A stretch of DNA of 64,000 nt from Eledone cirrhosa (taxonomy: Eukaryota): the NCBI GenBank assembly GCA_964016885.1, contig OZ024753.1, positions 6,138,001 to 6,202,000 on the forward strand, read 5' to 3'. Every line of letters starts with the position of its first letter. The first letter of the stretch is position 1. The notes below the pieces were generated by a model. That model had not been told where the DNA came from, did not search any database, and worked only from the letters and a program-made list of their open reading frames with translations. Position numbers and translations under genes: made by a program. This document shows positions 2,920 through 52,310 of the stretch, one piece after another.

Positions 2920-3057
2920 AATATTATGAAGCACCAAGGAGTCAATATGGTTTTAAACTAACAGATGTTTCCGTCGACACATCGCCATCCCGAGGATGAT
3001 CCCCATTGCATAAGATCTAAACCCTCTGGTAAAATGTACACTCAATAATAACACTGT

Positions 3058-3097
<40 letters not shown>

Positions 3098-3103
3098 GTG
3101 TGT

Positions 3104-3275
3104 ATGAAAAGAGTCAGGACCCCGACGGTTGAGCTCCGTTCGGATCTAGCGAAATGGCCGGAGCTCAGCCGTCGGGGTCCTGAATATTTTCATATTAACC
3201 ACTCTACTGCCTCAAGTATCGAGTACTCTGGTGGGTTATGATCTCTACCTGGTACTCTATTACACCCTATCTTTT
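3104..3275 (+). mobile_element. Penelope-pLTR-like fold-back element, family B
   Basis: Inverted arms TCAGGACCCCGACGG..GAGCTCCG / CGGAGCTCAGCCGTCGGGGTCCTGA, then the family tail AAGTATCGAGTACTCTGGTG; flanked by TA/TG and TATG microsatellite. Confidence 0.7.
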
Positions 3276-4235
3276 ATGTATGTATGTATGTATGTATGTA
3301 TGTATGTATGTATATATATATATATATGTATATATATATGTATATGTATATATGTGTGTGTGTGTGTGTGTTTGTGTGCGCGCGCGCGCACGCACACACA
3401 CAGATAGAAGGCTGATGTGTGGATACATACATGCATATATACACATGGGTTTTTATGTGTGTATGTATACATTTGTAGTATAGTGACATGTCATATATTG
3501 AGATTTGTATTTAATTTACTTTAGAATATATGCGTATATATCAATATTTTTATGAGTGTTTATCGTCTAAGATCAATTTCTTGAAGATATGAGAATAATA
3601 TATTTTATGAATAATTGATGGATTCTTAAATAAACTTCTGAAAGATGAAGGAAACGTGATATGTGATATAATTTAAAAGGTGTTTGTTATTCATTCGACA
3701 GGTGTATTTTCGTTTCGTTATATTTCTAAACAAATGTCTAGAATGACTGAAATTATATGCAAATCGATGTGCAAATAGAGCTAGTAAATATATTCATTAA
3801 AACATACGTTAATCTAGTAACATAAAATATCTTGAAATGAAATAGAAGATACAAAATTTAAAATATTACAAATATTCAAATATATATTAATACACAGATT
3901 TATCAATAGGAACATAACTCAAGTTTCATCTATTTCCTCTTTATCAAGTTTTTTCTACCTAGTTGGAACTCATTTCACTATACTCTACTTATTATATCAA
4001 GTTTTCGCATTAAACATACATATGCTATGTTTGCTATCTCACTTTATATTAATGTATGTCTGAAGATGTTTACTTCTTTGCAACTGTATAGCCCCTTCAC
4101 AAATATACACACAATTTCAAATGAATTGTATAATAAGGAATACGCTTATGGATAATATATGTACGCAGATCTGGCTCAACTAATACAATAGTTTGACATT
4201 ACCGATCAGGCAACAACTTATTATATGCATGTCGG

Positions 4236-4412
4236 TGGATTGGCAGAATTGGCAAAGAGTCGGACACCATGTTTGCAGCATGGTTAAGGCTTTAACCATG
4301 AGTCCAAATTCCGCCGAGGTAAACTTTGCCTTTCATCCTTGCGGGGTCGATAAAATAAAGTAGCAATAATGTACTGGAATCATTGCTGGCCTTGTGCCAA
4401 AAGTAGAAACAA
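4236..4412 (+). mobile_element. tRNA-type SINE, full length
   Basis: Head GGTGGATTGGCAG, B-box-like GAGTCCAAATTCC, core GCCTTTCATCC..GGGGTCGATAAAATAAAG, tail GGCCTTGTGCCAAAAGTAGAAACAATT. Confidence 0.9.
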
Positions 4413-4423
4413 TTGTGTGTGTG

Positions 4424-4469
<46 letters not shown>

Positions 4470-5759
4470 AGCAAAAGAAATCGAAAATGCAACTGGGTCT
4501 TTTTAAGAATATTTATGTTTCCTTTAAAGGTTTCAAGGTTCTTATGCTTTTCAAAAGTAGAATTGAAATGGAGAGTCTCTGGCTTTTCTCGCATATATAT
4601 AAGAATAACATTAAAAAAGATGCTTGTATTACATAAATCGTTTACCGTCTTTCTTAATGTTATTCCTATACTGAATCTCCATCGTAACTACAGATTGCGA
4701 ACGTAAACCTTTCTCCTGTGTTCTCCTGTTTTTACGATAACAAATTTTAATGACTACGCTTAATCATTATACTCTGACACTTCGTTCCTACATATTACTA
4801 ATTATCTATCTACACGCACGCACGCACACTCGCTCGCTCGTTGTTACAGCTCACAACTATGCGGGTTTAGATGGGCTCCTCCAAGGTATATCTCGTTGGA
4901 GGTGTCTTGGGTGATTTAATGATAAGGACCTCAGTTCTATCATCTCATTTCTACAGCTGAGTATATATATATATATATATATAAAATCAGAATGTTATGA
5001 CTCGTCAGAAATATATATATTCATGAAAATCTTGGCTGTTATTAACAAACAAAATTACCAATACATAGAGGTAGGGAGTCAAACTGAGAATAATTGTCGC
5101 AGAATCATTTATTCGAAACCACTTTCTGAACCATATTTCAAAATATTCCGAGTCAGGTACAAGATGACATATACTCTATTGAATATATGTCTTCCTCTGT
5201 CCAAGAGGACGCAATTTTCTCCTCGTCATTGTAATTTTTATTCTAATATGTGATCATCCATTAAACCTGGAAACAATTATGTACGATACGTATGATGCAA
5301 CTCCTAGAGGGAAAATTATATTACGATGGAGAAACAATATTGGCTCAAAATTAACACGAATATATTATCGGGGCATGAACACGTTTTTCTTTTGGGGAAT
5401 ACATAAAAGGACGACCACAAACATTTTACATGGGTTTTTCACGCCCTACCACTGATAATGCACGACTGTTTTTACATATCTTCATAACAGAATGTTGCAG
5501 CAAAATTACATGTTTTACAAATATACAGACACATTTGAGACGATTAAAAGCAGGATTATAGTCAATTTTGTCGGCATTGACTGCTTGTTTAGGATTTGTA
5601 ACTCGTACAAGGATTATTCTCCACACTATATGTACATCACTTATCGTTGATACTTGAATTACCTGTACATGACACGTATTTTAATATGGAAGGCTTGCAG
5701 GTTTCAATCATAGATTATTTTCAAATACATAACTCATGCAACACCTATATATTCCTCTA

Positions 5760-6200
5760 ACCATCTTCGCGTTCCGCGGTGTCAAACCCCTCATCTAGGA
5801 TGCCACTTGCAGCGACACTTTCTCCAGCCCAGGTTTTACTGCACGTCGGGCTGAGGAGGGCAAACTCTCCAAGTATCGGTCGCTCTCCGACGGGTTTTCG
5901 GTCATGCCCTTGGCAAAGGAGACTTCCGGTGTCCTTGGCCCTAACGCCACCTCTCTACACACCACCATAGACACTGAGCTGGCTGGCCGCAGGTGTGAGC
6001 CTCGCGAGATGAAATGGCTCTTCCAACGCATCTCCTTTACCATCCCCCGGGGAAACGCCTTCTCCATTCTGTTTACCGGGTCCGTGGGGAGGCCAGCACG
6101 TAGGACCCCATTTGCTCACCATACAGAGAGATGGGGAGGGCGAGAGATATCAATGTGATGACGGTGGGAGTTCGGCTCTTCTACGTTCGGACCATATCCT
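5760..6200 (+). mobile_element. CRE-clade non-LTR retrotransposon 3' fragment (restriction-like endonuclease region), decayed
   Basis: GC-rich island translating TIFAFRGVKPLI*DATCSDTF...ARRAEEGKLSKYRSL...PLAKETSGVLG...REMKWLFQRISFTIPRGNAFSIL, matching the WDAT..DT / AE..K..KY / ET.G..G / QR.S..I.RGNA pattern of CRE-type REL domains. Confidence 0.75.
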
Positions 6201-7170: not shown

Positions 7171-7219
<49 letters not shown>

Positions 7220-7231
7220 TTTAATATAGAT

Positions 7232-7283
7232 GAGATTCTACAGGACTAGAACTGTTTCATTCTTTAGAAATCATCAGGAATCT
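7232..7283 (-). ncRNA. type I hammerhead ribozyme motif, inverted twin
   Basis: Minus strand AGATTC-CTGATGA-TTTCTAAAGAAT-GAAA-CAG-TTCTAGTC-CTG-TA-GAATCTC. Confidence 0.65.
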
Positions 7284-7336
7284 GAGATTCCTGATGATTT
7301 CTAAAGAATGAAACGGTTCTCGTCCTGTAGGATCTC
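7284..7336 (+). ncRNA. type I hammerhead ribozyme motif (minimal, PLE type)
   Basis: GAGATTC-CTGATGA-TTTCTAAAGAAT-GAAA-CGG-TTCTCGTC-CTG-TA-GGATCTC: 7-bp stem I (one G.U), intact core, short stem II with U.U first pair, stem III, GUA cleavage triplet ending at 7329. Confidence 0.65.
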
Positions 7337-7599
7337 ATCTATATTAAAACTTTTATACTCTGCAATGTATTGAGTACCTTACTTACTGTGGTTACCTCCG
7401 ATTCAACCCGGAATAACGTACTATATATATATATATATATGAGAGAGAGCGAGATGTAAAATACCGACCGCGGCGCCAAGCAGTTTCGGCTTCTGTTCAG
7501 GAATTCTTTTATATATATAGTAGTAGTAATAGATACAAACATCATATATCTATGCAATTCTTTTCTTTTTGCGAAGCGAGATACTCAGTCTTCATTAGG

Positions 7600-9213: not shown

Positions 9214-9292
9214 AAAATGGTGGTTGGTGTGGGGGTGGTGGTATTGGCTGTGGACTCAGTAGTAGTCTTTTAATTTAGACACAAGTTCATTA

Positions 9293-9476
9293 TTGGATTG
9301 GCAGTATTGGTAGTGTCGGATGCCATGCTTTGGCGCATAGTTACGGCCCTTGCCATTCTGAGTTCAAATCCCGCGGAGGTTAACTTTGCCTTTCATCCTT
9401 ACGGGGTCGATAAAATAAAGTACCAGTAATACACTGGATATTTGCTGGCGTTGTGCCTAACGTAGAAACAATTATT
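9293..9476 (+). mobile_element. tRNA-type SINE, full length
   Basis: TGGATTGGCAGTATTGGTAG head, GAGTTCAAATCCC B-box, conserved core and tail. Confidence 0.9.
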
Positions 9477-10759
9477 GTATTGGGTACAGAATTTAGTGCA
9501 CTACTTTAGATAAGGCATTTCTGAAAGGAAACGAAGAATTTGACGATTACCTTCAGAAAACAATATAGATAAATAGATATAACAATATAGATAAATAGAT
9601 ATAACAATATAGATAAATAGATATAACACAATTATTTGCAACGAATTCGTTTCGCAGCAGAGAAAATCTATTTTTGAACGCCTGAGAATATCTTCTCCAC
9701 AAAAGATGATATATGTCAACTGGTAGAATCCCTTGAAATTACTACCTTATCATAGTACCAGCTACTATTGTAATTAGAGTTGAACACATTTTTACCCATG
9801 CGTTTATGTATTAGCATATAGACTGATGTAGCTAATATAATTTTTAACAATAAAACAAATGAGAGCAAAATGCTTTCACGTGGTTTTAATCTAATACTAT
9901 TATATCACATAAGGATGAGGAGTTATTTTGTCGATAATATACTAACTTGCAGTCCTGTAGTTGATGTATCTATCTATATATAAGCAAGACACCACGCTAA
10001 GACATTAGAGAAGATTTTTTTTTACATAGCGATGAAAGAGATTGGCGCTATTGGAGTATACTCTCCGGCTCTGCTTTTGATAGCAAAAACCTGAAGTTGA
10101 TTACATCCTCCCAAGTACTCACGTATTATGGATTTCCACGACAAATTAGATTCGCCGCATTAAATACTAATGTGGCTAATTGACAGAAACATTAGAACGT
10201 TGGATAGAGCGCTTTGCAGTATCCTTTTCGGCGCTCTGCACACTGAGTTCAAAGCCTACTCAGGTCAACTTTGCCTTTCATCCATTCAAGACCGACACAA
10301 AATATACCCCTATTACTGACATCGAATCCTCCTCCATATTTCTTTCTCCCACTCTCCATAATTCTCTGGAAAATATCTGCTGAATTCAGACCTGTAGAAA
10401 TATGGGCTCCGCCAGTTTTAAAACAGAGAATGCTCTAAAAACGTCGTATGGACATAAGGCACTCCTACGACTTTGTCGAGAGTTGCCTGTCCATACAAAC
10501 ATCATGTATTGGTTTCGTATGATAAACGTAGCCAAATATTGTATCGATGTTTGCCAAGTACCTGAATATATCCATTGTGATAACGTATGCAACAACAACC
10601 TACACATTCCATGTAAATCATAAATGTTGGGTATTATATATGATAATTTCAACTGTGTATATATTACCACATAATACTCCTAATAAATAACATTTCATAC
10701 AGACAGACACAGGAACTATTTACGTTTAAAAACAGTATATACCTTAAATCTAATTGCGT

Positions 10760-21084: not shown

Positions 21085-21245
21085 TAGTCAGGACCCCGAC
21101 GGCTGATCTCTAATCGTTTCGAATTCTAGATCCGCCCAGATCTAGCTGTCGAAGCGGCCGGAGGTGAGTTGACGGTGCCCTGACTCTATTCATATTACCC
21201 ATTCTACTACTCTAAGTATCGAGCACTCTGGTACGTCATGGTCTG
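21085..21245 (+). mobile_element. family B fold-back element, diverged
   Basis: AGTCAGGACCCCGACGGCTGA arm and tail AAGTATCGAGCACTCTGGT. Confidence 0.65.
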
Positions 21246-22189: not shown

Positions 22190-22371
22190 GAACCAGTAGG
22201 ACCCCGACAGCTGAGCTCAAGCCGTTTCGATGGCTAATTCTGAGTCCAGAATTAGCCGTCGAAACGGCTTGAGCTCAGCTGTCGGGGTCCTACTGGTTCC
22301 TATTACCCACTCAAGTATTGAGTACTTTGGTGCGTTATGGTCCACCTGGTTCCTTACCACATTTCCTTCGT

Positions 22372-22372
<1 letters not shown>
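22190..22372 (+). mobile_element. family B fold-back element with the 3' half of an HHR
   Basis: 53-bp inverted arms (1 mismatch), 4-nt loop; GAAA-CGGC-TTGAGCTCA-GCTG-TC-GGGGTCC; tail AAGTATTGAGTACTTTGGTGCG. Confidence 0.8.
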
Positions 22373-26215: not shown

Positions 26216-26433
26216 TATAGGTTTCACATAAAGAGACAAATCAGGCTGAATAGATAAATTCTGCCAGCCAACCAGTTTGTTGAAAGATGGCTGAGAGAAG
26301 CGAGCATGGTCTGAGTGAATGGGCTTGCTCAGAGTATGCGTCTGTAAATCGGAGGAATAAATTTGAGTCGGAGTATTTGCCCCAGAGGTCAAGTTTATCT
26401 AAGGTTTTTGTCGGCTTTCTCTCAATGACTTTC

Positions 26434-26955
26434 GGAGGTAACCCCCATTTAAGGAATTTATCGGAGGTATCCCCCATTTAAGGAATTTATCGGAGGTAAC
26501 CCCCATTTAAGGAATTTATCGGAGGTAACCCCCATTTAAGGAATTTATCGGAGGTAACCCCCATTTAAGGAATTTATCGGAGGTATCCCCCATTTAAGGA
26601 ATTTATCGGAGGTATCCCCCATTTAAGGAATTTATCGGAGGTAACCCCCATTTAAGGAATTTATCGGAGGTAACCCCCATTTAAGGAATTTATCGGAGGT
26701 AACCCACATTTAAGGAATTTATCGGAGGTAACCCACATTTAAGGAATTTATCGGAGGTAACCCCCATTTAAGGAATTTATCGGAGGTAACCCCCATTTAA
26801 GGAATTTATCGGAGGTAACCCCCATTTAAGGAATTTATCGGAGGTAACCCCCATTTAAGGAATTTATCGGAGGTAACCCCCATTTAAGCAATTTATCGGA
26901 GGTAACCCCCATTTAAGGAATTTATCGGATGTAACCCACATTTAAGGAATTTATC
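26434..26955. repeat. 29-bp tandem minisatellite, 18 copies
   Basis: GGAGGTAACCCCCATTTAAGGAATTTATC head-to-tail with no spacers. Confidence 0.95.
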
Positions 26956-29427: not shown

Positions 29428-29464
<37 letters not shown>

Positions 29465-29467
<3 letters not shown>

Positions 29468-29563
29468 CGAAGGAAATGTGGTAAGGAACCAGGTGGACCA
29501 TAACGCACCAAAGTACTCGATACTTAGAGTAGTAGAGTGGGTAATAGGAACAAGTAAGACCCC
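29465..29563 (-). mobile_element. solo family B copy starting at the predicted HHR cleavage site
   Basis: Minus strand (TA)n-T-GGGGTCTTACTTGTTCCTATTACCCAC...TTCCTTCGTTA-(TA)n; matches 22284-22372. Confidence 0.8.
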
Positions 29564-30119
29564 ATATATATATATATATATAGATATAGATATATATATA
29601 GATAGAGAGAGAGATTTATTCTATTATTGGCTCTCTAATCAATTTCTTCTTAACTCTATCAGTTCACTGTAATATAGACCCACATGTATATTTCTAATTA
29701 TATTTCAAAAACACCATCCATTCTTCCTCTACCATACGCAACTGCCTACAACCACACACAAACATTGCTCGGGCCTTGCAAAGTTCCACTTTATTAGCAT
29801 GAGGGCAGACGAAGAAACCGACTAAGGGTGACGAGCGGTAGCAACTAAACAACAGAAGATAATTTCAAGGGGATATTGCGCGGATGTGCTAAAACGTTCA
29901 TATTCTTAATAAGTGATACTAGAGAGCTAAAATCTTGCATGCAATCATTTCAACACTTATTAGCATCTGCATTGTTTCTTTACGGGGAATATGATGAAAA
30001 ATAAACCTCATTTGATCATTCCATAAGAATATCTTTGTCAGCCTATGAAGTTATTACCTTTGAACCTTTCAGCTGACCCCTATATATTCCCCTATTTAAA
30101 TACGTGAAATAACATGTTC

Positions 30120-35379: not shown

Positions 35380-36005
35380 TTTTACGTTCTGAGTTAAATC
35401 ACGACGAGGTTAACTTAGCCTTTCATTCTTACGGGGTCGATAAAATAACGTACCAGTCACGCAATGGGGTCGATTTAATCGACTTTCCGTTCCCCAGAAA
35501 TTACTGGCCTCGATTATTACTGGTTCGATTCACAAATCTCGACGAGATCGCCCTCTCGGTGTAGATGAAATAAAGTACGGCTATAATCGACTTTCCCTTT
35601 CTCTACAAAACTGTTAGCAGGGCGGTGAATTGGCAGTATCGGTAGAGGGTTGGACGCCATGCTCTCTAGCGTAGTTACGTCCCATTACAGTCTGAGTTAA
35701 AATCCCGCCGAGGATAACTTTGCCTTTCATCCTTATGGGGTCGTTAAAATAAAGTACCACTAATGTACTGGGTAATTGCTGGCCTTGTGCCAAAAGTGGA
35801 AACAATTATTCCATAAGGATTATGGATTGGCGGTATCGGTAGTGTCAGACACCATGCTTTGAATCGTAGTTATAGCCCTTTACGGTCTGAGTTCAAATCA
35901 TACCGAAGTTAACTTTGCCTTTCATCATTACGAGGTCGATAAAATAAAGTACCAGTAATGTACTGTGATAATTGCGGGCCTTGTGCCAAAAGTAGAAACA
36001 ATTAT
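35380..36005 (+). mobile_element. tandem tRNA-type SINE copies (35380-35510, 35620-35810, 35823-36005)
   Basis: Three cores in the same orientation. Confidence 0.85.
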
Positions 36006-36094
36006 TCCTAAATTATACACTAGAAAAACAGCATCAAGTAGAAAAACATGAACTACTCTCACTACTGACAGTATTTGTGGCAATATTAGTACTA

Positions 36095-39516: not shown

Positions 39517-39548
<32 letters not shown>

Positions 39549-39550
<2 letters not shown>

Positions 39551-39731
39551 CGTTATTCCGGGTTGAATCGGAGGTAACCACAGTAAGTAAGGTACTCAAT
39601 ACATAGCAGAGTATAAAAGTTTTAATATAGATGAGATTCTACAGGACTAGAACTGTTTCATTCATTAGAAATCATGATTTCTAATGAATGAAACAGTTCT
39701 AGTCCTGTAGAATCTCATCTATATTAAAACT
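39549..39731 (-). mobile_element. family A fold-back element containing a perfect 114-bp palindrome (39618-39731)
   Basis: Arms are exact reverse complements around TCA|TGA; the axis falls in the CTGATGA core. Confidence 0.85.
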
Positions 39732-39861
39732 ATATATATATATTTATCAGCTGTTGTGTATGTGTGTGTGTGTGTAAATATATATATATATATATTTATC
39801 ACCTGTTGTGTATGTATGTATATATATATATAAATATGTAAGCTTGTTAGTGGGTATGTGC

Positions 39862-43926: not shown

Positions 43927-44757
43927 AAATAATTGTTTCTACTTTTGGCACAAGGCCAGTAATTACGCCAGTGCTTTATTTTATCGACCCCAAAGTTGAA
44001 CCTCGGCGTGATTTGAACTCAGAACAGTAAAGGACCATGGTGTCTGATGCTCTACCGATACTCCCAAACCACCGTGTTATAAAATAATTGTTTCTACTAT
44101 TGGCACAATGCCAGCAATTATCCCAGTGCATTACTGGTACTTTTTTTATCGACCCCCGTAAGGATGAAAGGCAAAGTTAATAGCGGCGGGATTTGAACTC
44201 AGAATGGCCGTAACTCTGTGCATCAAAGTATGGCGTCCGACCCGCTACCAATACTGCCAATTCACGGCCCTGTTATAAAATAATTGTTTCTACGTTTGGC
44301 ACAAGGCCAGCAATTAACCAGTGCATTACTGGTACTTTATTTTATCGACCCCGTAAGGATGAAAGGCAAAGTTAACCTCGGCCGGATTTGAACTCAGAAT
44401 GGCAAGGGCTATAACTCTGTACGTCAAAGCATGGCGTCCGACCCTCTACCAATACGGCCCGTGTTACCTTAACATCTCCACAGCGTCCCCATCATTTAAA
44501 CGTCCCCATCCTTTAAACATTGTAAGAATAAAAAACTTTTGTATCAATGAATGTGCGTATTGTATATTTAATAAGTTTCTACTTTTGGCACTAAACCAGC
44601 AATTACCCGTACATTACTAGTACTTTATTCTATCAAGCCCGTAAGGATGTAAGGCAAAGTTAACCTCGGCGGCATTTTAACTCAGTCCGAAAAAGAGGAT
44701 GTAACTCTCTGCTGGAAAACATGGCATCCGACTTTCTACCGATACTGCCAATCCACC
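43927..44757 (-). mobile_element. three tandem SINEs plus a fourth with a 16-bp TSD
   Basis: Copies separated by (G)TGTTAT(A/G)AAATAAT; the fourth is flanked by TATTGTATATTTAATA. Confidence 0.88.
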
Positions 44758-48470: not shown

Positions 48471-48878
48471 GTGTCAATTATACTCGGGAGGCAGCTGCAT
48501 ACGAAATTAAGCGCAGATTATCAAAATATTTCAACATAAATGTTAAAACTATTCTTGACCCTCTTGACACAGGTCCTTTATCTAAGATGAAAGAACAGAT
48601 GGAGAAAAAGTCTTGTTTATGTTAGATGAAACAAAAGGAAACCCGAACGTAATGGAATGTGGAAGAAAGTATGGGTGAAATAAATATCAAATATCTTGAG
48701 GCATATTCTATGCGTGACTCTGGCTACAAAACATTTAGAATTAAAATGAGTTCGTGTCAGGGGTGAAACTGTGTATCTGCGTAGATTAGATTCGGTATTT
48801 GTCAATGAGTAATTTAGTGGGACTTATCAGTGCGTAGCCGTTTGTTTTCACGCGTATAATAATTATTATTATTCTTAA

Positions 48879-49483
48879 TGGCGGATTGGCAGTATCAGTG
48901 GAGGGTTGGACACCGTGCTTTGTAGCATAGTTACGTCCCTTTATGGTCCGAGTTCAAATCCCGTCGAGGTTAACTTTGCCTTTCATCCTTACGGGGTCGA
49001 TACAATAAAGTACCAGTAATGTACTGGTATAATTGCTGGCCTTGTGCCAAAAGTAGAAACAATTCTTATTAATGGCAGTGGATTGGCAGTATCGGTAGAG
49101 GGTCGGACGCCATGCGTTGCACCATAGTTATGTCCCTTTACGGCCTGTGTTCAAATTCCGTCTAGGTTAACTTTGCCATCCATCCTTACCGGTTCGATAA
49201 AATAAAGTACCAGTAATGAACTGGGTAATTGCTGGCCTTGTGCCAAAAGTAGAAACACTTATTATTATTATTAATGGCGGTGGATTGGCGGTGGATGGAG
49301 GGTCGGGCGGCATGCTTTGACGTATAGTTAAGGCCCCTGCCATTCTGAGTTCAAATCCCGCAGCGGTTAACTTTGCCTTTCATCCTTACATGGTCGATAA
49401 AATAAAGTACCAGTTTCGCACTGGGGTTATCTAATCGGCTTTCCCCTCCCCCAAAATGTCTGGCCTTGTGCCTATATAAGAAA
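48879..49483 (+). mobile_element. three tandem tRNA-type SINEs
   Basis: Each starts after TTAATGGC(G/A)G. Confidence 0.88.
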
Positions 49484-49795: not shown

Positions 49796-50527
49796 ATGGA
49801 GGTTTTAAAGGATGCAGTGTCCCGACAGCTAACAACTGATGCAGGTAGTTTGTTCCATGGAGGTTTTAAAGGATGCAGTGTCCCGACAGCTAACAACTGA
49901 TGCAGGTAGTTTGTTCCATGGAGGTTTTAAAGGATGCAGTGTCCCGACAGCTAACAACTGATGCAGGTAGTTTGTTCCATGGAGGTTTTAAAGGATGCAG
50001 TGTCTCGACAGCTAACAACTGATGCAAGTAGTTTGTTCCATGGAGGTTTTAAAGGATGCAGTGTCTCGGCAGCTAACAACTGATGCAGGTAGTTTGTTCC
50101 ATGGAGGTTTTAAAGGATGCAGTGTCTCGACAGCTAACAACTAATGCATGTAGTTTGTTCCATGGAGGTTTTAAAGGATGCAGTGTCTCGACAGCTAACA
50201 ACTAATGCAGGTAGTTTGTTCCATGGAGGTTTTAAAGGATGTAGTGTCTCGACAGCTAACAACTGATGCAGGTAGTTTGTTTCATGGAGGTTTTAAAGGA
50301 TGCAGTGTCTCGACAGCTAACAACTAATGCAGGTAGTTTGTTCCATGGAGGTTTTAAAGGATGTAGTGTCTCGACAGCTAACAACTGATGCAGGTAGTTT
50401 GTTCCATGGAGGTTTTAAAGGATGTAGTGTCTCGACAGCTAACAACTAATGCAAGTAGTTTGTTCCATGGAGGTTTTAAAGGATGCAGTGTCTCGACAGC
50501 TAACAACTGATGCAGGTAGTTTGTTTC
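49796..50527 (-). repeat. 61-bp tandem array, 12 copies, derived from a CR1 LINE 3' end
   Basis: The minus strand of the unit encodes WNKLPASVVSCRDTASFKTS. Confidence 0.95.
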
Positions 50528-50602
50528 ATGCTTCAGCAACTCTGAGCGTCAAAAATGTTTCCGAAAATCATGGGAGCTGTACTGTTTTCTGACTTTGTAG
50601 GC
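50528..50602 (-). mobile_element. CR1-like LINE ORF2 C-terminal fragment running into the array
   Basis: AYKVRKQYSSHDFRKHF/TLRVAEA followed by WNKLP..FK. Confidence 0.75.
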
Positions 50603-51875: not shown

Positions 51876-52045
51876 AAGAAAAGTCAGGACCCCCCCACAT
51901 CGAGTTCGGATCAAGCTGTCGAATCGGCCGGAGCTCTGCCGTCGGGGTAATACTTTTTCCTATTACCTACTCTACTACCCTAAGTATTGAGTACTCTAGT
52001 GCGTTATAGTCCAGCTGGTATCTTACCACACCTACTTTGTTATAT
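51876..52045 (+). mobile_element. family B fold-back element
   Basis: Left arm AAAAGTCAGGACCCC; right arm GGAGCTCTGCCGTCGGGGT; tail AAGTATTGAGTACTCTAGTGCG. Confidence 0.7.
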
Positions 52046-52109: not shown

Positions 52110-52310
52110 GTTTATCCCGGGTTCAATCGGGGGTAACCTGATGATTTCTCACGAATGAAACAGCTCTAGTCCGACAGAAGCTTTTCTATATTAAATATAT
52201 ATAGAGAGAGATGTGTTTGTGTGTGTGTGTGTGTTGAAACGCCCGGAACTCAGCTGTCGGGGTCTCGGATTTTTCATAACACCCACTGTACTACCCCAAT
52301 TATCATAGGA
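52110..52310 (+). mobile_element. family A and family B HHR remnants
   Basis: CTGATGA-TTTCTCACGAAT-GAAA-CAGCTCTAGTCC at 52138; GAAACGCCCGGAACTCAGCTGTCGGGGTC at 52236. Confidence 0.6.

Follow-up and report, generated by a model that had tools for sequence, protein, structure and literature searches.

A solo copy begins at a predicted ribozyme cut site

We analysed a 64,000-nucleotide stretch of the Eledone cirrhosa genome (assembly GCA_964016885.1, contig OZ024753.1, positions 6,138,001 to 6,202,000 of the forward strand; hereafter the window). It holds six copies of a repeat, family B, which by its sequence is the pseudo-long terminal repeat (pseudo-LTR) of a Penelope-like element (PLE), a retrotransposon, with Hydra-clade motifs. 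One of them is a solo copy of 98 nucleotides (29466–29563, minus strand) between two (TA)n runs. We number positions from the first base 3′ of the GUC triplet of a predicted hammerhead ribozyme (+1, which is minus-strand position 29563 and plus-strand position 22284), the preceding C being −1. The end of the solo copy at +98 (29466) is the distal reverse-transcription start site. At its other end, as the initial annotation had it, the copy begins with the first G after GUC, straight after (TA)n (29563 versus 29564–29604); the junction has no base in common, the flank having a T where the element has a C at −1. The solo copy is likely a run-off complementary DNA (cDNA) made on PLE RNA, the 5′ end of which was likely produced by the element's predicted hammerhead.

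The 3′ half of this hammerhead is carried by another family B copy, where positions 22261–22290 read as previously described, from the GAAA box through GTC to GGGGTCC, with the predicted cut at 22283/22284. The core half was said to be missing from all copies in the window, and a motif scan of both strands indeed found none; an Rfam scan of the window returned no match, and the window has no full ribozyme copy. An inverted arm at 51877–51893 had been offered as a further instance. It does end at GGACCCC, but is weak as stand-alone evidence because the copy is old, further C residues follow the stop and the other arm begins upstream of the cut.

Copy ends accumulate at the predicted cut base throughout the genome

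The exact 28-nucleotide end motif of family B occurs 21,124 times in the 3.0-Gb assembly, which therefore holds at least 21,124 copies. Counting copies whose start is flanked by six A/T bases, we found 113 starts at +1 against about 12–24 at neighbouring positions, the genome-wide pile-up that the initial annotation had predicted. In the neighbouring classes, +2 has 13 loci, +3 has 12 and +4 has 24, 14 of which resemble internal deletions, with 5 unassigned (68 rows, 54 loci); about 25 starts lie at −1/−2 and about 24 at −3/−4 (first 100 of 116 rows, by eye). The excess at +1 is about 7-fold (Poisson P = 1e-53; compared with the most populated neighbour class, P = 6e-13). Local duplicates or partner arms make up 9 of the 100 listed +1 starts, and full inspection of 30 of the 113 loci found all to be genuine: 20 lie on TA runs, 6 on other sequence and 4 after a filler. 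Counted by eye over the 100 rows listed, three subfamilies have 43, 21 and 24 independent +1 loci; the peak therefore does not descend from one master copy.

Short hairpin insertions tell the same tale at their inner turn. There are 374 that turn near the cut; among the first 50, both arms end at +1 in 20 and at least one arm does so in 29, and a further 9 have blunt joins compatible with +1/+1. In the 33 of these 50 with filler bases, where the junctions are unambiguous, +1 accounts for 49 of 66 arm ends (runner-up position, 6). We estimate that cut RNA would account for near 2% of copies, about 330–400 of at least 21,124.

Two loci with such ends have unusual surroundings. At L356 (about 3000–3230), a tandem of 24-nucleotide units, each comprising +1 to +19 plus TA bases, precedes a +1 to +98 copy. 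L357 is a hairpin with both arms at +1 and between them a filler that, as at L348, reads AC and then poly(A).

A/T-rich fillers lie at the scissile bond

We screened for copies with at least 2 extra bases in a 9-nucleotide interval around the cut, which gave 140 rows. By eye, the first 100 contain 15 rows (14 loci) with a foreign A/T-rich filler, always between GTC and GGGG; the other inserts in these rows are duplications or G-run expansions. Two further filler loci, L354 and L358, were met among the +1 starts, for a total of 16. The fillers are 5–31 nucleotides long and together comprise 154 A, 56 T, 21 G and 6 C in the sense strand, several opening with T and continuing with A. We take this makeup to resemble that of oligo(U) or mixed oligo(A) RNA tails.

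Fillers go with the ribozyme core. In the first 30 loci of the screen, the core is present in 6 of 6 filler copies versus 1 of 24 copies with other inserts (P = 1.2e-5), and over all filler loci it is present in 14 of 16, several of which extend into the open reading frame (ORF), versus 5 of 96 copies in an unbiased sample. A partner arm is readable in 10 of the 16 loci. In 7 of these its end lies at +1 to +3, in 1 it is either +3 or −2 and in 2 it is +8 and +13; ends at −35 to −45 are absent. These stops are as expected for one linear cut RNA. No partner arm is visible in 5 filler loci. At L359, an ORF-bearing stretch starts at +1. We also considered 21-nucleotide duplications ending at −1 as homology-guided transfers and rejected them, the core being present in only 1 of 11 such loci.

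The parent has the motifs of a Hydra-type Penelope-like element

The best genomic matches to family B are mostly hairpin insertions, and some extend upstream. The near full-length element at L175 reads, in order, inverted arm, 3′ untranslated region (UTR), pseudo-LTR, ORF, 3′ UTR and pseudo-LTR, and its two ribozyme cut sites lie 2,819 nucleotides apart, giving a unit under 3 kb. Read by motifs, its protein comprises a reverse transcriptase (RT)-like ORF together with a GIY-YIG domain (IY...YIG) at the C terminus, over two frames, with one frameshift in this copy. It contains SDKTGN (DKT), RLRWRT (RWR) and a linker with CNCPDRSIC (CxCX5C), as well as CNLC (CxxC) and CKH (CxH) motifs. Instead of CCHH at what we take to be the corresponding positions of the GIY-YIG domain, L175 has a single Cys between IY and YIG. 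Pfam and PDB searches with the L175 ORF gave no matches, and the Atlas neighbours of the protein (0.95–0.98) carry PF26215 and in part also RVT_1. Judged by the Hydra-clade features set out in the available text of PMC8557442 (DKT for DKG, an RWK-type motif, CxCX5C, and CxxC/CxH next to the conserved E and N), the parent of family B is, as far as its motifs go, an ordinary-looking Hydra-type PLE.

The insertions have two fixed outer ends, +19/20 on one strand and +98 on the other, in either arrangement, and the targets are (TA)n. Insertions show a pseudo-LTR or partial tandem with an inverted arm and a tail, as in the Hydra clade. We rejected a miniature inverted-repeat or other DNA transposon, since the inner junctions differ copy by copy despite the fixed outer ends and the parent encodes an RT, and likewise a non-LTR retrozyme, since the parent codes for protein and a direct arm with the core occurs in just 5 of 96 copies. 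A further stretch that codes for an RT, AT-rich and broadly of this type, lies beside a family B copy at L030 (1800–3139).

The pseudo-LTR encodes a predicted type I hammerhead

In full-length copies the order is ACCCC, core, stem II, GAAA, stem III, GUC and GGGGU. The minimum-energy fold of −96 to +18 is a predicted type I hammerhead skeleton with a three-helix junction, stem I closing both ends, a GAAA box, an NUH triplet and G10.1-C11.1. The initial annotation had expected full-length copies to bear the stem I complement followed by a CUGANGA core. The complement, ACCCC, stands directly 5′ of the core, but the canonical core is absent from all 18 distinct full-length variants, which read UUGAGAA (6), UUGAUAA (6), CUGAGAA (5) or GUGAGAA (1).

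The core sequence tracks the subtype. Three subtypes have a Watson-Crick 3-8 pair (22 of 30 distinct linked loci, and one further UUGAUAA), which the CTACTCG subtype lacks (7 of 30). A C3.A8 mismatch, as in the CUGAGAA core, is expected to make a poor ribozyme, and the C3.A8 subtype has the weakest peak of ends, with 24 at +1 versus 14 at +2/+3, compared with 67 versus 9 in the others (P = 0.003, by eye). The U3-A8 pair, as in the UUGAGAA and UUGAUAA cores, is a natural hammerhead variant, already known from Schistosoma PLEs (PMC4209133, available portion). Five loci, L152, L191, L342, L345 and L353, belong to the CUGAGAA subtype, with the C3.A8 mismatch or a core without position 7, yet have scars at the cut.

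Most copies end inside the ribozyme

To see where copies end irrespective of the cut, we used 96 distinct insertions among 100 listed of the 21,124 motif matches, chosen regardless of their 5′ end; this is the unbiased sample referred to above. The farthest reach lies at −34 to −46 in 57 of 63 scorable insertions, beyond it in 3 and short of it in 3. This is why the core half is missing from the window copies: most copies end inside the ribozyme. Cut-site ends occur in 2–3 of the 96, namely L232 (both arms at +1) and L149 and L156 (+2, ambiguous). The initial annotation was right about the footprint of what is likely cleavage in vivo, and wrong about the core sequence and about scope, having overstated cleavage as what defines the 5′ end of the usual template.

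That template probably has its 5′ end within the stem II loop (−41 to −45), at a transcription start. Compared with the TATA and initiator consensus, a TATA-like word lies about 29 nucleotides upstream of −41 and initiator-like words lie at −45 and −41, which suggests a promoter at −41/−45; one subtype has no clear TATA word. An apparent wall at exactly −45 in the end counts stems in part from the opposite arm. In a check for a cap-derived G at −41, G is present in 18 of 29 arm ends, 9 of which are attributable to the opposite arm. A splice acceptor at −40/−39 was rejected as the source of the common end, there being no common upstream exon and the arms often including bases upstream of the AG. 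The listed sequencing runs included no RNA run. Contigs of 4 runs yielded no filler or start at the cut, although contigs lose rare variants; in the X1 contigs, summed depth drops roughly 25-fold from −20 to −60, but the assembly may itself have been made from X1.

Three groups of copies are unusual at these ends. L027 and L321, both solo copies, start at −41 on (TA)n and carry a single additional G, possibly a trace of the cap, in too few cases to judge. Long sense-strand T runs are added at −42 to −44 in L018, L020, L024, L208, L310, L311, L315, L330 and L334, as if the reverse transcriptase reiterated on three U residues at the template end or added A residues. In L006, L147, L220, L243 and L359, arms end at −41/−40 or +1 and run on into the ORF or 3′ UTR in the interior of the element, which suggests jumps to other RNA positions.

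Proposed mechanism and alternatives

The ends, the fillers and their link to the core make it likely that the ribozyme is active in vivo and that its cut RNA occasionally returns to the genome by reverse transcription. Transcripts that read through and bear a complete ribozyme upstream would be cut to unit length, +1 to −1, and the new 3′ end would gain an A/U-rich tail without a template. With primers from both ends of the target, reverse transcription would begin near the RNA 5′ end and run off at +1. The resulting cDNA may then be joined to the target, giving a solo copy; be joined to the other cDNA, giving a short hairpin; or jump to the tailed 3′ end and continue into the 3′ UTR and ORF, giving a filler copy. 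Since a jump to a tail-less end leaves no scar, the jump route may be commoner than the scars show. Cleavage would remain a minor route (about 2% of copies). Most templates likely start at a promoter within the stem II loop, without the core half, and could not be cut in cis at their 5′ end.

In its fullest form, which we advance tentatively and rate as a little below an even chance, the PLE hammerhead would make unit-length RNA in vivo and the strong-stop cDNA would jump to the tailed 3′ end, as in retroviral strand transfer. This jump would then build the pseudo-LTR and tail found in full-length copies; the bulk of the hairpins would represent transfers that failed, and the fillers would be fossilised tails of RNA that record the step.

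Several observations weigh against cleavage by the ribozyme or against parts of this scheme. The predicted hammerhead fold is no more stable than shuffled sequences (z = −0.37). The filler loci L342, L345 and L353 and a 3-fold peak fall in the C3.A8 (CUGAGAA) subfamily, and the promoter at −41/−45 is proposed from motif likeness alone. A second hairpin-forming family, described below, was rejected as a replicate: its apparent A/T-flanked pile is mostly point mutation in intact copies, at least 6 of its rows among the 30 loci inspected being intact copies in which the base just 3′ of the cut is changed, with only one true TA junction. Other points against it are best taken with the explanations that they favour.

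The strongest of these, though unlikely, is that the cut and tailed RNA is ligated into a covalent circle, the fillers being the sealed junction and the +1 ends coming from unligated molecules. Circles have been put forward for PLEs (PMC4209133, available portion). L346 has an identical filler in both arms, a pattern that a covalent circle, or copying from the first cDNA, accounts for better than a jump does, and L175 crosses two ribozyme sites scar-free, which uncut tandem precursors and circles explain equally well. On a circle, however, both arms should cross the junction, yet the partner arm is at +1 to +3 in 7 of 10 filler insertions; moreover, tails of 5–31 nucleotides would presumably prevent ligation by the ribozyme itself.

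We consider it improbable that no cleavage takes place and that the reverse transcriptase stalls on uncut RNA at the G run before stem III, drops off or adds untemplated bases, and resumes. The position is a possible pause site, +1 being the 5′ base of a four-G run that adjoins the 5-bp stem III, and for the green anole PLE the available part of PMC11167929 describes cleavage as dispensable in vitro and no RNA reads ending at the cut. But the stem and G run are in all templates, whereas fillers are nearly restricted to core-bearing copies (the 6 of 6 versus 1 of 24 given above); there is no spread of the ends across +2 to +4 or to −1; and the fillers are A-rich in the sense strand, in contrast to the T runs at the −42 to −44 ends.

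Less credible still is a host nuclease that recognises the folded ribozyme-like structure and cuts the same bond. It would likewise require the core-bearing fold and would explain the scars in the C3.A8 subfamily, but the cut coincides to the base with the canonical hammerhead bond, and the subfamily with a mismatched core pair has the weakest peak. That the +1 copies are chance truncations, or all stem from a single truncated master, has next to nothing left in its favour and is largely refuted for the population: a single copy is indistinguishable from random truncation (roughly 1 in 7 from the background rate for the solo copy) and +18/19 starts, with TA microhomology, outnumber +1 among direct TA junctions, but the roughly 7-fold peak is sharp, lacks microhomology and comprises four sequence subtypes, both start sites and differing flanks.

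Comparison with known systems

As far as the available text of PMC8557442 describes them, Hydra-clade PLEs share with the parent of family B a length under 3 kb, a C-terminal GIY-YIG domain, DKT, RW(R/K), the CxCX5C linker, a hammerhead in the pseudo-LTR, (TA)n insertion and an inverted 5′-truncated arm. Unlike them, the element described here has a U3-A8 core, a long stem II loop with the usual 5′ end, and a 79-nucleotide tail. The same text calls hammerhead function in these elements unclear and describes no junction footprint. The Schistosoma Cercyon hammerhead is alike in type I topology, palindromic loop III and U3-A8 core (PMC4209133, available portion). The green anole element PAc Poseidon also has two internal reverse-transcription start sites bounding the tail, extends both target strands and uses AT-rich targets; no RNA reads begin or end at its cut, whereas here genomic copies carry ends and fillers there (PMC11167929, available portion).

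Other ribozyme-bearing elements offer partial parallels. In R2, cleavage by a hepatitis delta virus (HDV)-like ribozyme determines the 5′ end of the RNA and is legible in genomic 5′ junctions; these vary where the cut lies at the element's end (PMC3774820, available portion). R2 differs in ribozyme and element class and uses this as the main route, which is minor here, and the family B cut, unlike that of R2, would also make the 3′ end. Animal non-LTR retrozymes have a type I hammerhead and a link to PLE pseudo-LTRs, but are non-coding tandem units with a whole ribozyme each, whereas family B copies are truncated products of a coding element, mostly with half a ribozyme (PMC7229834; 10.64898/2026.07.22.740005; available portions).

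A role in precursor RNA processing has been proposed for PLE hammerheads (PMC4209133), but in the available portions of PMC4209133, PMC8557442, PMC11167929 and PMC6765202 that role is unclear or without in vivo evidence, and the first three leave open whether the ribozymes cut in vivo and whether the cut RNA is used for transposition. Our literature search, which did not cover subscription papers, found no report of PLE insertions ending or tailed at the hammerhead cut. The genome studied here preserves a record of cut 5′ ends, of 3′ ends that seem to have been tailed and of the joins between them, dependent on the ribozyme core. It also offers an explanation for the short hairpin repeats that fill the genome: each would be a pair of run-off cDNAs linked by their ends. 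The test by ends and fillers can be run on any PLE-rich assembly and discriminates between a circle and a jump.

Family B and other repeats in the window

The family B features of the window are collected in Table 1.

Table 1. Coordinates of family B features and adjoining target runs in the window
Feature	Position	Strand	Remark
Solo pseudo-LTR fragment, +1 (29563) to +98 (29466)	29466–29563	minus	Among genome-wide +1 starts as C13:6167547
(TA)n target run adjoining +1 end of solo copy	29564–29604	none	Zero microhomology
(TA)n target run at +98 end of solo copy	29433–29466	none	
Inverted arm of typical hairpin insertion	22190–22242	minus	Proximal start site (about +17 to +20) to −37
Direct arm, −41 to +98	22243–22372	plus	−41 is the common, probably promoter-defined end; includes hammerhead 3′ half
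Predicted hammerhead GAAA, stem III, GUC, stem I 3′ strand	22261–22290	plus	Predicted cut 22283/22284
Older-subfamily hairpin copy	51877–52041	plus	Inverted arm 51877–51893 halts at +1; direct arm begins upstream of cut 51943/51944
Older-subfamily hairpin copy	3104–3283	plus	Both arms extend beyond cut
Older-subfamily hairpin copy	21086–21243	plus	Both arms extend beyond cut
Diverged fragment	52233–52303	plus	Begins close to GAAA box

The second hairpin-forming family lies at 7210–7420, 39530–39747 and 52137–52203 of the window and at L078, L247 and L287. It has a canonical CUGAUGA/CUGAAGA hammerhead with a predicted cut at GUA/G and a covarying stem I, and the word TATAAATA lies 30 nucleotides before the common start of most copies. 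Several of its arms halt at the predicted cut (L284/L285, L294, L295, L288, L298 and L302). A third repeat, at L175 (reverse strand, about 5640–5760) and L257, has a minimal hammerhead-like motif with CUGAAGA, a short stem II and GAAAC-GUC.

The window also contains a very abundant repeat of about 200 nucleotides, often in head-to-tail pairs (1–199, 4212–4414, 9288–9480, 35615–36006, 44079–44459, 48863–49414 and others), and two homogeneous minisatellites, at 26432–26955 (18 units of 29 nucleotides) and 49796–50530 (12 units of 61 nucleotides).
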